NCBI GenBank assembly: GCA_951406725.2
Contig: OX597838.1
Span: forward strand, 26,846,001 to 26,910,000
DNA from: Octopus vulgaris
Taxonomy: Eukaryota
Direction: 5' to 3'
Length of the DNA: 64,000 bases
Under the pieces are notes generated by a model. The model was not told the origin of the DNA and did no database searches. It saw only the letters and a program-made list of their open reading frames with translations. Position numbers and translations under genes: made by a program. Positions 2,951 through 32,007 of the stretch are shown piece by piece; the stretch's first letter is position 1; each line of letters begins with the position of its first letter.

Positions 2951-3432
2951 TGTAGTTTCGGTTTTAGTCTCACTTCTTAGAATCTGGGGCAAGTACCTTC
3001 TACAATCGCCCCAGGCTGACCAATAACTTGTGGGTGAATTTGGTAGACAGAAATTGTACAAAGCCCCAACCATGTAGTTTCGGTTTTAGTCTCACTGCTT
3101 AAAATCTGGGGCAAGTACCTTCTACAATAACCCTAGGCTGACCGATAACTTGTGGGTGAATTTGGTAGACAGAAATTGTACAAAGCCCCAACCATGTAGT
3201 TTCAGTTTCAGTCTCAATGCTTAGAATCTGGGGCAAGTACCTTCTACAATAGCCCCAGGCTGACCAATAACTTGTGGGTGAATTTGATAGACAGAAATTG
3301 TACAAAGCCCCAACCATGTAGTTTCGGTTTTAGTCTCACTGCTTAGAATCTGGGGCAAGTACCTTCTACAATAGCCCCAGGCTGACCAATAACTTGTGGG
3401 TGAATTTGGAAGACGGAAATTGTACAAAGCCC
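2951..3432 (+). repeat. 4 x 122-bp tandem array derived from a diverged SINE A 5' segment
   Basis: TGTAGTTTC starts at 2951, 3073, 3195, 3317; unit contains GGGCAAGT...GAATTTGGTAGACAGAAA. Confidence 0.9.
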
Positions 3433-3687: not shown

Positions 3688-4795
3688 CAGGGGTTCTCAA
3701 CCATTTTTTATCCCCTGGACCCTTTTGTTTACTATTTTATTCTGGTGGACCCCCATAACCATTTGATGTTCAAAAACTAGTTTTAAAGAAATTTCTTTCA
3801 AAATTCTTATTTTGTTTTCCATACATTAACTTGTGTAGGTTGAACTATGTAAGATGTTAGAGAGAGAGACCTAGCTGCTTCTTATTTGAAAGGGCTACAC
3901 ACAGAGGGGACAAGCAAGGACAGAAAAAAAGGATTAAGTCGATTATATCGACCCTAGTGTGTAACTGGTACTTATTTAATTGACCCCAAAAGGATGAAAG
4001 GCAACGTCGACCTCGGCGGAATTTGAACTCAGAACGTAGCTGCAGACGAAATACCTATTTCTTTACTACCCACAAAGGGGCTAAACACATGAGAAGACAA
4101 ACAAGTACAAACAGATTCATTCGATTATATCAACCCCAGTGCGTAACTGGTACTTATCTAATTGACCCCGAAAGGTTGAAAGGCAAATTCGACCTTGGCG
4201 GAATTTGAACTCAGAACGTAGCGGCAGATGAAATACCTATTTCTTTACTACCCACAAGGGGCTAAGCTAAACACATGAGAGTACAAACAAGGACAAACAG
4301 ATTAAGTCGATTATATCAACCCCAGTGCTTAACTGGTACTTATTCAATCGACCCCGAAAGGATGAAAGGCAAATTCGACCTCGACGGAATTTGAACTCAG
4401 AAGATAGCTGCAGACGAAATACCTATTTCTTTACTACCCACAAGGGGCTAAACACATGAGAAGACAAACAAGGACAGACAAACAGATTAAGTCAATTATA
4501 TCAACCCCAGTGCATAACTGGTACTTATTTAATTGACCCCGAAAGGATGAAAAGCAAAGTCGACCTCGGTGGAATTTGAACTCAGAACGTAGCGGCAGAC
4601 GAAATACAGCTTAGCATTTCGCCCGGCGTGCTAACGTTTCTGCCAGCTCACTGTTTCTTGCAATACATATCAATTCATACATTTAAAGCAAAATTTTTTT
4701 CAGGGGCCCTTAAAGTACTATTGTGGATCCCCAATTTATTATTTTGCTATACAGATCCTCAGGGGGTCATACAGAGTCCGGTTCGAGAACCACTG
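3688..4795. mobile_element. hAT-like MITE interrupted by a SINE B concatemer
   Basis: TIRs CAGGGGTTCTCAAC / GTTCGAGAACCACTG; imperfect 8-bp TSD ATCCAAAT/ATCTAAAC; second copy at 22022-22667. Confidence 0.8.
3880..4651 (-). mobile_element. SINE family B (Meta-domain-like) head-to-tail concatemer, 4 units of ~182-186 bp, one tRNA-like head
   Basis: GAACTCAGAA at 4025, 4207, 4393, 4578; GCCTTTCATCCTTTCGGGGTCGAT..AAGTACC block resembling the MetaSINE domain; CTG(C/T)TTCTT duplicated at both flanks. Confidence 0.9.
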
Positions 4796-5372: not shown

Positions 5373-5612
5373 GGATATAAATCAATGTGTGTGTGTGAAT
5401 GTTTACAATCTGTGCACTGTGCAGGGTTTCAAATAGTGACGTTTAACATTCTCTGGTCAACCAAATATCTGCCCGCTCTGCACTTTCAAATGTGAATGTA
5501 ATGAACATGCCCTTACTTAAAAGAAAAACAAAAACAAATAAACATAAGGGTTAGTGAGAGTTGAGTATAGGTTATCACTCAGTTGTGAAATTCAACCATT
5601 TAAGAGTAAGCC

Positions 5613-6726
5613 TATTTCTTTACTACCCACAAGGGGCTACACACAGAGGGGACAAACAAGGACTGACAAACGGATTAAGTCGATTATATCGACCCCAGTG
5701 CATAACTGGTACTGATTTAATCGACCCCGAAAGGATGAAAGGCAAAGTCGACCTCGGCGGAATTTGAACTCAGAACATAGCGGCAGACAAAATACCTATT
5801 TCTTTACAACCCACAAGGAGCTAAACACAGAGGGGGACAAACAAGGACAGACAAATGGCTCAAGTTGATTATATCGACCCCAGTGCGTAACTGGTACTTA
5901 TTTAATCGACCCTGAAAGGATGAAAGGCAAAGTCGACCTCGGCGGAATTTGAACTCAGAACATAGCGGCAGACAAAATACCTATTTCTTTACAACCCACA
6001 AGGAGCTAAACACAGAGGGGACAAACAAGGACTGACAAACGGATTAAGTCGATTATATCGACCCCAGTGCGTAACTGGTACTGATTTAATCGACCCCGAA
6101 AGGATGAAAGGCAAAGTCGACCTCGGCGGAATTTGAACTCAGAACATAGCGGCAGACAAAATACCTATTTCTTTACAACCCACAAGGAGCTAAACACAGA
6201 GGGGGACAAACAAGGACAGACAAATGGATTAAGTCGATTATATCGACCCCAGTGCGTAACTGGTACTGATTTAATCGACCCCGAAAGGATGAAAGGCAAA
6301 GTCGACCTCGGCGGAATTTGAACTCAGAACATAGCGGCGGACAAAATACCTATTTCTTTACAGACAAATGGCTCAAGTTGATTATATCGACCCCAGTGCG
6401 TAACTGGTACTTATTTAATCGACCCTGAAAGGATGAAAGGCAAAGTCAACCTCGGCAGAATTTGAACTCAGAACGTAGTGGCAGACAAAATAGCTATTTC
6501 TTTACTACCCACAAGGGGCTAAACATAGAGGGGGACAAACAAGGACAGACAAACAGATTAAGTCGATTATATCAACCCCAGTGCGTAACTGGTACTTATT
6601 TAATCGACCCCGAAAGGATGAAAGGCAAAGTCGACCTCGGTGGAATTTGAACTCAGAACATAGCGGCAGACGAAATACCGCTAAGCGTTTCACCCGGCAT
6701 GCTAACGATTCTGCCAGCTCGCCACC
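5613..6726 (-). mobile_element. SINE family B concatemer, 6 units (~185 bp, one internally deleted), single head, 16-bp TSD
   Basis: GAACTCAGAAC at 5766, 5951, 6135, 6320, 6464, 6648; TTTAAGAGTAAGCCTA at 5599-5614 and 6729-6744. Confidence 0.92.
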
Positions 6727-6968
6727 TTTTTAAGAGTAAGCCTAAGGCTGATGGTAATGGTGGTAGTGGTAGTGGCGATAGTTGTGGTGGTGATGGTGGT
6801 AGCCAAGTGGTGGTAATGGTCAGGTTAGTAAAGATGGTGGTGGTAGTCATGGTGATAGTGATGGGTAGTTGGTAATCTCAGTTAAAGTCCCCTTGCCAAG
6901 GCAGCCTGAATTTGATCCCCCGGAATGGGAATACAGCGCTTAAATGTTATGTGAAAATTTGTAATGTA

Positions 6969-27747: not shown

Positions 27748-28733
27748 GGCGTTGAGCTGGTAGAATGACTGGAACGTCGGATAAAATGCTTAGGAATTAC
27801 GCCTTCCGGATCTTTACATTCTGAGTTCATATCCTGGTGAGGTCAACTTTGCTTTTCATCTTCTCAGAGTCGATAAAATTAATACCGGTCATGTACTGGG
27901 ATCAATGCAATCAACTACAGCACCCTTAAAAAAATTGGCTGTCGGATAAAATGCTTAGGAATTACGCCTTCCGGTTCTTTACATTCTGAGTTCATATCCT
28001 GGTGAGGTCAACTTTGCTTTTCATCTTCTCAGAGTCGATAAAATTAATACCAGTCATGTACTGGGATCAAAGCAATCTACTACAGCACCCTTAAAAAAAA
28101 TTGGCTGTCGGATAAAATGCTTAGGAATTACGCCTTCCGGTTCTTTACATTCTGAGTTCATATCCTGGTGAGGTCAACTTTGCTTTTCATCTTCTCAGAG
28201 TCGATAAAATTAATACCAGTCATGTACTGGGATCACGCCTTCCGGTTCTTTACATTCTGAGTTCATATCCTGGTGAGGTCAACTTTGCTTTTCATCTTCT
28301 CAGAGTCGATAAAATTAATACCGGTCATGTACTGGGATCAATGCAATCAACTACAGCACCCTTAAAAAAAATTGGCTGTCGGATAAAATGCTTAGGAATT
28401 ACGCCTTCCGGTTCTTTACATTCTGAGTTCATATCCTGGTGAGGTCAACTTTGCTTTTCATCTTCTCAGAGTCGATAAAATTAATACCAGTCATGTACTG
28501 AGATCAATGCAATCAACTACAGCACCCTTAAAAAAAATTGGCTGTCGGATAAAATGCTTAGGAATTACGCCTTCTGGTTCTTTACATTCTGAGTTCATAT
28601 CCTGGTGAGGTCAACTTTGCTTTTCATCTTCTCAGAGTCGATAAAATTAATACCAGTCGTGTACTGGGATCAATGCAATCAACTAAAGCACCCCTAAAAA
28701 AAAAATGGCTACCATCAAGCCAAAATTTGAAAC
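27748..28733 (+). repeat. 6-unit tandem array (~165 bp) amplified from one diverged SINE B copy
   Basis: GTCGGATAAAATG at 27776, 27941, 28107, 28378, 28544, plus a truncated unit at ~28235. Confidence 0.92.
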
Positions 28734-29261: not shown

Positions 29262-32007
29262 GAATGTCGTCAGGCGCTCACAGCCATCTGTCAGTCGAGC
29301 AATGGGATCGGTAGATGTTCTGCTTTAGGAATTTATAGAGGATTAGTGGCAGGCAAGTGTGACAATGTTCTTGGGGAGACTCTGGGCGCCAACAAGAACA
29401 AACTGGCTAGTCTGTTCCAAGGGACTTTCTGGTCAGGAACTATCATGGATAATATCCAGATGTCCTTGGCAGGCATGGATGTGCTGTCAGATGGGCTTGT
29501 CCAAGGTGCATGCAGAATGATGAAACCGTTCTACATGCCCTCATTCAGTGTTAGGGTATTGCTGACTTGTGGGATTATGTCGAACAGCTGCTGTCAGATG
29601 GGCTTGTCCAAGGTGCATGCAGAATGATGAAACCGTTCTACATGCCCTCATTCAGTGTTAGGGTATTGCTGACTTGTGGGATTATGTTGAACAGCTGCTG
29701 TCAGATGGGCTTGTCCAAGGTGCATGCAGAATGATGAAACCGTTCTACATGCCCTCATTCAGTGTTAGGGTATTGCTGACTTGTGGGATTATGTCGAACA
29801 GCTGCTGTCAGATGGGCTTGTCCAAGGTGCATGCAGAATGATGAAACCGTTCTACATGCCCTCATTCAGTGTTAGGGTATTGCTGACTTGTGGGATTATG
29901 TCGAACAGCTGCTGTCAGATGGGCTTGTCCAAGGTGCATGCAGAATGATGAAACCGTTCTACATGCCCTCATTCAGTGTTAGGGCATTGCTGACTTGTGG
30001 GATTATGTCGAACAGCTGCTGTCAGATGGGCTTGTCCAAGGTGCATGCAGAATGATGAAACCGTTCTACATGCCCTCATTCAGTGTTAGGGTATTGCTGA
30101 CTTGTGGGATTATGTCGAACAGCTGCTGTCAGATGGGCTTGTCCAAGGTGCATGCAGAATGATGAAACCGTTCTACATGCCCTCATTCAGTGTTAGGGTA
30201 TTGCTGACTTGTGGGATTATGTCGAACAGCTGCTGTCAGATGGGCTTGTCCAAGGTGCATGCAGAATGATGAAACCGTTCTACATGCCCTCATTCAGTGT
30301 TAGGGTATTGCTGACTTGTGGGATTATGTCGAACAGCTGCTGTCAGATGGGCTTGTCCAAGGTGCATGCAGAATGATGAAACCGTTCTACATGCCCTCAT
30401 TCAGTGTTAGGGTATTGCTGACTTGTGGGATTATGTCGAACAGCTGCTGTCAGATGGGCTTGTCCAAGGTGCATGCAGAATGATGAAACCGTTCTACATG
30501 CCCTCATTCAGTGTTAGGGTATTGCTGACTTGTGGGATTATGTCGAACAGCTGCTGTCAGATGGGCTTGTCCAAGGTGCATGCAGAATGATGAAACCGTT
30601 CTACATGCCCTCATTCAGTGTTAGGTATTGCTGACTTGTGGGATTATGTCGAACAGCTGCTGTCAGATGGGCTTGTCCAAGGTGCATGCAGAATGATGAA
30701 ACCGTTCTACATGCCCTCATTCAGTGTTAGGGCATTGCTGACTTGTGGGATTATGTCGAACAGCTGCTGTCAGATGGGCTTGTCCAAGGTGCATGCAGAA
30801 TGATGAAACCATTCTACATGCCCTCATTCAGTGTTAGGGTATTGCTGACTTGTGGGATTATGTCGAACAGCTGCTGTCAGATGGGCTTGTCCAAGGTGCA
30901 TGCAGAATGATGAAACCGTTCTACATGCCCTCATTCAGTGTTAGGGCATTGCCGACTTGTGGGATTATGTCGAACAGCTGCTGTCAGATGGGCTTGTCCA
31001 AGGTGCATGCAGAATGATGAAACCGTTCTACATGCCCTCATTCAGTGTTAGGGTATTGCTGACTTGTGGGATTATGTCGAACAGCTGCTGTCAGATGGGC
31101 TTGTCCAAGGTGCATGCAGAATGATGAAACCATTCTACATGCCCTCATTCAGTGTTAGGGCATTGCTGACTTGTGGGATTATGTCGAACAGCTGCTGTCA
31201 GATGGGCTTGTCCAAGGTGCATGCAGAATGATGAAACCGTTCTACATGCCCTCATTCAGTGTTAGGGTATTGCTGACTTGTGGGATTATGTCGAACAGCT
31301 GCTGTCAGATGGGCTTGTCCAAGGTGCATGCAGAATGATGAAACCATTCTACATGCCCTCATTCAGTGTTAGGGCATTGCCGACTTGTGGGATTATGTCG
31401 AACAGCTGCTGTCACGTGGCACAGATCTGGCTGTCGGCCAAGCCAGTGGTGATGATTGCACTGCTGTCCTCCTTCAATTGGGCAGGCAAGGCAATTTTCT
31501 TTTGCCTGGTGGCTGTGGTTAAAGAGATTGTCTAGTGGATGAGGCTGAAAGGCATGAGTACAGACACATTCCTCTCTGGTAGAGCTCTCATTTGACTTCT
31601 TCAAGTTTCACTTGAAAAGGAGATTGAGAGTGGAGAGGGAAGTGCTGTCCTCGACTGAGTTTATTGAAGGTGGGTGAAAGTTGCAAAAATGGCCAGAGTG
31701 GATGGTATTTCTCTAAGTATAGACCTGTGGGTTGGAGAGAGCACTTGCTCCTGGGGTTCAGAGAAATCTCAGACAGTAGGGTTCCTCGATTATCCATAGA
31801 GGCATTCCTGTATCAGGAGGGCCACATCTCTATCATTCTCCCTGCCATTTTTTTTTTACCTTTGTATGCTATTCATACGTCCCTTCTTTTTCAGTGTATA
31901 CCTTTTTTTTTTTGTTGTCATTTCATTATTATATGTAAACCTTCACACTTTATGTCTGTCTCTGTATTGTCCCCCTCATCTGTCGCCCTTGTGGCAAATA
32001 AATGAAA
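29262..32007 (+). mobile_element. 5'-truncated Tx1/L1-clade LINE (ORF2 C-terminus + 3' UTR), inactivated, containing an internal tandem array
   Basis: ECRQAL...MDNIQMSLA / RHGCAVRWACPRCMQNDETVLHALIQC*GIADLWDYVEQLLS...GKAIFFCLVAVVKE...FKFHLKRRLRVEREVLSS...RWVKVAKMA across frameshifts; CCHC (zf-RVT-like) knuckle; tail CCCTTGTGGCAAATAAATGAAAT. Confidence 0.85.
29485..31414 (+). repeat. 18 x 107-bp near-identical tandem array
   Basis: TGTCA unit starts at 29485, 29592, 29699 ... end 31410 (1925 bp = 18x107 minus a 1-bp deletion at ~30624). Confidence 0.97.

Follow-up and report, generated by a model that had tools for sequence, protein, structure and literature searches.

Insertion of an octopus SINE at one fixed base of its own head, and a possible origin of its one-headed tandem arrays

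Introduction

Several described systems, as given in the portions of the publications available to us, resemble parts of what we report here. In S. broughtonii, a blood clam, arrays of the form TSD1-(SINE)n-TSD1 consist of a first SINE with a full tRNA head followed by head-truncated repeats, all within one pair of target site duplications (TSDs) (PMC11481361). At the 'anneal' 5' junctions of the R2 and R1 elements, the 3' end of the cDNA pairs with upstream target sequence carried by the template, which gives a seamless join with no duplication, and R1 templates also carry downstream target letters at their 3' end (PMC11331408, PMC2718515). The crocodilian SINEU-3 and the LINE Tx1-Mar use one target within another repeat, where sequential insertion leads to tandem SINEs (PMC4494074). 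Tandem dimers of transposable elements arise by double insertion in Drosophila, and site preference there yields dimers that expand to arrays (10.1101/158386), while in squamates tandem satellite arrays have formed from parts of SINEs and were later homogenised (PMC10702118). In octopus itself, CORE-type SINEs are abundant (PMC4824008, PMC8967140, PMC13282606), and the CORE-SINEs OR1 and OR2 have been named (PMC4824008, PMC4758252).

Here we have analysed a window of 64,000 nucleotides of Octopus vulgaris DNA (contig OX597838.1, positions 26,846,001 to 26,910,000) that contains a six-unit SINE array. Like the clam arrays, this array has a full-head first SINE, head-truncated repeat units and one TSD pair. 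However, the inner units of the clam arrays, as described in the accessible part of PMC11481361, are also 3'-truncated, whereas those of the octopus SINE still have their complete tail; the clam arrays involve about 3% of SINEs, those of octopus about 40% of tails; and unequal recombination was proposed for the clam, while nested intermediates show an insertion origin in octopus. R2 and R1 are autonomous and target rDNA, whereas for the octopus SINE both the target and the homology arm are its own head, and the seamless step is a proposed one. As with SINEU-3 and Tx1-Mar, a SINE and a LINE share a target inside a repeat; but the target of SINEU-3 is a DNA transposon and a TSD separates its tandem copies, whereas here the SINE itself is the target and most chains have no inner TSD. 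The Drosophila dimers are whole elements side by side, unlike the octopus SINE, which inserts inside its own promoter region, and the available text on the squamate satellites (PMC10702118) reports no fixed self-insertion site of the kind found here. The octopus SINE would be like OR1 and OR2, as far as the available descriptions go, in its putative tRNA-like head and a central domain that may be CORE-like, and in that one head and core is combined with either of two tail types. The architecture of such arrays is thus already known from the clam, while in the literature that we searched (open-access papers and bioRxiv only) we have found no SINE whose insertions fall on a fixed base of its own head.

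Results

Anatomy of the arrays in the window

The array at 5599-6744 is a minus-strand SINE with a single head and six bodies between a perfect 16-bp TSD. Its parts, in the order of the SINE strand, are listed below.

6729..6744, minus strand: 5' copy of the 16-bp TSD, exact match, two copies only in the window
6680..6728, minus strand: SINE head, a 5-nt leader plus positions 1-45 with an A-box-like motif; the only head of the array
6495..6679, minus strand: unit 1, body 46-230, with 10-14 differences from the other five units
6351..6494, minus strand: unit 2, 144 bp, with the GC junction variant and a 41-bp internal deletion; sister of unit 5
6166..6350, minus strand: unit 3, a mosaic of both unit types, with 5 and 6 differences from units 4 and 5
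5982..6165, minus strand: unit 4, sister of unit 6 with 4 differences
5797..5981, minus strand: unit 5, sister of unit 2 with 5 differences
5613..5796, minus strand: unit 6, the terminal unit, tail complete
5599..5614, minus strand: 3' copy of the TSD, whose first four letters on the SINE strand equal the SINE run-on end

These coordinates, together with the exact match of the two TSD copies and the lack of a third exact copy in the window, bear out the original prediction of six head-to-tail units with a lone head and a single TSD. The final four letters of the left TSD copy double as the run-on letters of the SINE. As was also predicted, the junctions join the 3' end to one internal point: all five lead to monomer position 46 (position 45 in the numbering of our consensus), one of them as the GC variant. 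The junction had further been described as occurring with either G or A. Both forms do exist, but all five junctions of this array are of the A form (CpG decay), which creates a T4 run on the SINE strand, and the G form is found in the array at 3889-4651. To judge from these letters, Pol III would today likely terminate when it meets the first of the five junctions with their T4 runs.

The variants noted earlier as shared by units 1 and 3 and by units 2 and 5 (numbering from the left) could be confirmed, with 4 and 5 differences within the two pairs, compared with 10-14 to the head-bearing unit. The sister units and a single CpG decay common to 5/5 junctions agree with the earlier suggestion of later duplication at the DNA level. 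Since the array combines sister units, a mosaic unit 3 and this common decay, its simplest history would be one insertion that gave a dimer, followed by DNA duplications, including one of a two-unit block, up to six units.

The window contains a second, independent array.

3889..4651, minus strand: one head and four bodies, last unit 3'-truncated, same junction

It had been placed from 3880; with the start corrected to 3889, the use of an identical junction holds. Its units differ from those of the six-unit array at 12-27 positions, no TSD was seen around it, and its last unit is without a tail. Imperfect inverted ends (3688-3702 and 4780-4795, recognised by eye, possibly of a MITE) flank this array within 3688-4795. 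Elsewhere in the window, units of 165 and 105 bp from a second SINE family are repeated in tandem at 27776-28703 and are joined by a different junction, and two unrelated tandem repeats lie at 29482-31414 (107 bp x 18, 98% alike) and 2951-3432 (122 bp x 4).

The SINE family and a candidate partner LINE

The SINE monomer is 228 nt long and interspersed in more copies than the 100 asked of a SINE, with TSDs of variable length (median 16 bp) in 43/74 monomers against a null rate of 1-3%. A- and B-box-like motifs were recognised by eye in its head and point to a tRNA origin, which we infer from these motifs; ARAGORN and Rfam gave no match on the region. The central domain is one that we take to be CORE-like. 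The consensus has no T4 terminator, and the fold of the monomer RNA is unremarkable (z=-1.49). A second SINE family shares the head and core, and many arrays end in its body and tail.

The SINE has about 40 nt of its tail in common with two broken LINE copies, which match each other over 1.3 kb at 85-89% identity and are both inserted at site 46.

L372:1-1721, plus strand: LINE copy with RT, zf-RVT-like, at site 46
L296:1657-3032, minus strand: LINE copy with RT, zf-RVT-like, at site 46

The copies encode a reverse transcriptase (RVT_1, E=2e-9, above the cut-off; zf-RVT just below the cut-off), and an atlas search of the LINE repeated this assignment and gave nothing further. Genome-wide, 55 of 507 LINE-type tail ends lie at the site, as do 2/2 sampled copies. 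The LINE might be a target-specific member of the Tx1 clade, for which more than 20% of copies would be expected at one target. Five copies of a further element (L018, L120:8401, L152, L262, L271) lie off the SINE site and end in a related tail of 40 nt with a TATC-type microsatellite behind it; they share upstream sequence, and no RT frame was seen in L120.

Genome-wide scale of the junctions

The original prediction held the junction to be fixed genome-wide, and the counts agree. In the 2.80-Gb genome the exact 25-nt junction occurs 20,664 times, while its reversed control occurs 0 times, so the junction is not due to chance. Exact heads and exact tails number 19,420 and 108,598, respectively (reversed controls 0). 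Of the 101 exact tails recovered from the beginning of contig C1, flanking DNA follows 57 and site 46 follows 41, while 2 lead to site 13 and 1 lies four bases off. Site 13 is a second fixed junction, made from a tail variant, with 1,808 exact copies. In contigs of organism E, this second tail variant amounts to 78% of summed depth, compared with 13% in organism A (L131:2950); as contig depth is no copy number, these values can only hint at a later expansion of the site-46 tail type.

Multimers had also been called a normal product of the family, and indeed 26/65 head-bearing copies, at loci chosen mostly by tail, are multimeric (39 monomers, 22 dimers and 4 longer arrays). The sampled loci come mostly from contig C1 and are pattern-selected. 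Duplicates and chains less than 150 bases from a locus end were left out, and the head-selected loci L031-060 and L211-240 were dropped from the dimer counts of 15/65 and 9/49 below, from the comparison of array heads with monomer heads (0.097 vs 0.063, positions 16 and 33) and from the TSD-survival count that shows no trend.

Insertion into existing SINEs

The pattern of an old head, the site, a short gap and a new head has 81 exact matches in the genome. In 22/30 inspected chains we can read an old head, a TSD, a complete new copy, the junction and the old body. The duplications in these nested forms are 12-21 bp long and carry private variants on both TSD copies. The junction is therefore an ordinary insertion junction, made by target-primed insertion into an existing SINE, and both families serve as targets.

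In the mechanism that we propose, new SINE copies insert at one fixed base within the head of older copies. The run-on end of the RNA may prime by pairing at the site. Of the monomer ends, 14/42 continue into the first four letters of the site (background 0.003); a comparable 3' end overlap is known for L2, CR1 and RTE LINEs, according to the part of PMC6007223 available to us. What matters is the direct identity between the run-on end and the site. Pairing alone was considered as the cause of targeting and rejected as too weak: in SINE-rich loci about half of the sites with the 7 letters (76/158) lie inside SINEs, yet a full 7-letter match is used by no more than 2 to 4 of 47 monomer ends, compared with 41 of 101 tails that form the junction. 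The LINE endonuclease may add to the targeting, as the two LINE copies, whose tail resembles that of the SINE, lie at this very base, although only 55 of 507 LINE-type tail ends are found there.

Two further observations concern insertions of this kind. At L049:1466-1800 a monomer lies antisense in the core of another SINE, with a TSD and a four-letter match to the run-on end. In addition, there are head-only tandem arrays of ~65-70 bp units in up to ~20 copies (L236; L218; C13:69.036 Mb; C14:84.691 Mb), which may have grown from the old head, TSD and new head of nested insertions and would then be a second satellite seed.

Independence and age of the units

Neighbouring units are independent draws, often from the other, older SINE family. 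For 29 same-family dimers, the first and second units agree at 117/261 diagnostic sites, compared with 115.8 by permutation. In two Mantel tests, r was 0.02 (p=0.22) in one and 0.08 (p=0.06) in the other; the latter value, from same-family dimers, is as large as the within-monomer control, though weak linkage is possible. The two units of 25 same-family dimers are of equal age (divergence 0.048 and 0.047), while in 33 dimers ending in the second family the last unit is about twice as old as the first (0.074 vs 0.037, p=5e-5). Among 92 second-family terminal units, 0/4,186 pairs share at least 4 rare variants and 2 pairs share three; for comparison, 6/2,016 pairs of independent monomers share three or more. 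As the units are independent and form no families, neither one circling template nor a few masters can have produced them.

Explanations other than insertion

The original prediction explained the arrays by an RNA 3' end that folds back to the junction site, with reverse transcriptase circling one template or copying a 185-nt circular RNA. Its starting point is correct in so far as the GAAAUA/UAUUUC complementarity of six letters is present at the junction, and some long arrays do have near-identical units. Yet this complementarity does not appear as pairing in the folded monomer RNA: the computed probability that the 3' end pairs with the site, the point of re-entry, is below 1e-5, the 6-bp duplex is worth -2.0 kcal/mol, and forcing it gives a fold of -57.2 against -65.2, a cost of 8 kcal/mol. 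The second fixed junction, at site 13, has no such complementarity at all. Moreover, a circle should give nearly identical units, whereas dimer agreement and unit ages show that the units were not identical at insertion and often come from different families, and the graded sharing of variants in long arrays points to stepwise DNA duplication. The model of folding back or circling is thus already largely refuted, and we consider it highly improbable. Descent of all arrays from one or a few multimeric master copies, an alternative that had been raised together with it, would suit the invariant junction letters and source RNAs that appear to contain them. On the other side stand the two junction classes, the many subfamilies of last units, independent nested events with differing TSD lengths, and the lack of linkage and families. 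In particular, linked position-specific variants in both units, as expected of a dimeric SINE from a fixed master, were not found in the dimers beyond the weak linkage at p=0.06. Master copies are refuted as the sole cause, and this reading is very improbable. Alternatively, the cDNA end might jump in trans during reverse transcription, leaving one SINE RNA at the site and continuing on the 3' end of a second SINE RNA through direct microhomology. This would account for the independence of the units and the youth of the heads as well as for the one TSD and the two fixed sites, but a match of 4-7 nt must then act in ~40% of events, and the nested forms with TSDs, the LINE at the same base, the twice-older last units and the partly old heads are left unexplained, which makes such switching improbable.

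The origin of the single head

Insertion into an older copy should leave two heads, as in the visible nested forms, but these are only ~8-10 per 210 arrays outside the targeted search. We propose that the front end of the new cDNA likely anneals to the old head, which would leave a single head together with the earlier scar, a seamless join like that of R2. The 5' end of the template is homologous to the upstream target, since head positions 1-45 are that target, and no duplication is seen at the new join in 21/22 dimers, which carry no target allele in the TSD zone. Correspondingly, target alleles just after the site are repeated in unit 1 in 2/33 and 1/22 one-head dimers in two counts, and in a third count in 9/49 dimers compared with 12/22 nested controls and 20/312 in the background. 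A sign of joining in place is that the heads are partly old in arrays with an old last unit. Head divergence is 0.097 in these arrays vs 0.063 in monomers, and the old allele at position 16 occurs in 16/27 of such arrays vs 6/43 monomers, while that at position 33 is not enriched (4/27 vs 5/43). At the second junction, position 16 is concordant in 21/26 cases, which is suggestive only. Most heads are nevertheless young, being only about a quarter of the way to the divergence of the old family, so annealing requires the new strand to win most repairs. A depletion of the young head allele in dimers (15/65 vs 23/44) was set aside; nested new copies show it too (7/26). Visible nesting is more common with old-type targets (5/28 vs 3/188, p=0.001, with two more degenerate cases found by hand), and an outer TSD is found in 0/12 arrays truncated beyond position 62, although true deep truncations are rare.

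A different way to a single head is that nested insertion makes the junction, Pol III then transcribes from the nested head across the body of the old copy, and the resulting chimaeric RNA is retrotransposed in full length by means of its last tail, monomers being primed at the first tail; one-head arrays would spread mainly in this way. Because the monomer ends run on into junction letters and the consensus has no T4 run, the source RNAs probably do read through junctions, and these two features together with the mostly young heads favour such read-through. The unduplicated TSD zone and the older last units are also expected from it. On the other hand, partly old heads, the excess of nesting in old targets, the missing TSDs of truncated arrays and the lack of families favour annealing to the old head. 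With no families among the 92 terminal units, read-through would need well over 1,000 equally active sources by our estimate, at variance with the few visible nested copies, and in the six-unit array of the window each of the five junctions carries a T4 run. The age of the surviving TSDs gives a contradictory answer. Under one divergence measure, TSDs survive in 16/29, 20/34, 10/27 and 1/5 arrays by class of last unit and in 6/11, 9/15, 8/25 and 3/19 monomers of the same classes; survival in arrays thus tracks the last unit, which favours annealing. Under the other measure there is no trend (rho 0.02), and the oldest class keeps its TSD in 7/13 arrays vs 3/24 monomers, which favours read-through. 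The TSD mismatch rate is saturated as a clock, flat at 0.07 in monomers. In other individuals and relatives, the window and one dimer locus gave a pile-up of repeats with no contig bridging an array; one contig covers 27 letters of the head as well as flank, compared with 31 needed. Based on the above analyses, we lean towards cDNA annealing to the old head as the main route and regard read-through of nested copies as rather unlikely in that role, though both probably occur.

Growth of the arrays

After insertion, unequal DNA exchange likely adds further units. In 38 longer arrays outside the window, the middle units are clean last-to-first chimaeras in 9 arrays and mixed in 23; they follow the last unit in 3 arrays and the first in 1, and 2 arrays are uninformative. 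The presence of both chimaeric and mixed middle units indicates that exchange and repeated insertion contribute. Separately, we have observed a dimer (L131:2735-3124) whose unit 1 is diverged at 46-70, while its last unit is clean over this stretch but diverged beyond it, as though an old monomer had received a circularly permuted unit by recombination.

Discussion

Overall, we give a somewhat better than even chance to the explanation as a whole, that is, insertion at the SINE's own site, a likely annealed front join, and likely unequal DNA exchange afterwards. It is possible, and we put it forward tentatively as something short of probable, that the SINE and the LINE form a closed loop. The LINE enzyme would nick one base of the SINE head, and the SINE RNA would bring the end for priming as well as a homology arm of 45 nt, so that copying into the older copy could proceed without a second nick, similar to prime editing. 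A fresh promoter would replace the old one in each event, and tens of thousands of such events would seed tandem arrays.

For the interpretation of SINEs, one head and one TSD are no proof that insertion happened only once, a point of importance when SINEs are dated or used as phylogenetic markers. If the seamless step is true, a natural non-autonomous element performs homology-sealed insertion at a safe site that it supplies itself, and this would have a bearing on R2-based gene writing. For the octopus genome, the self-insertion described here gives a concrete route from dispersed SINEs to tandem repeats, one that affects about 40% of the tails of a very abundant repeat.
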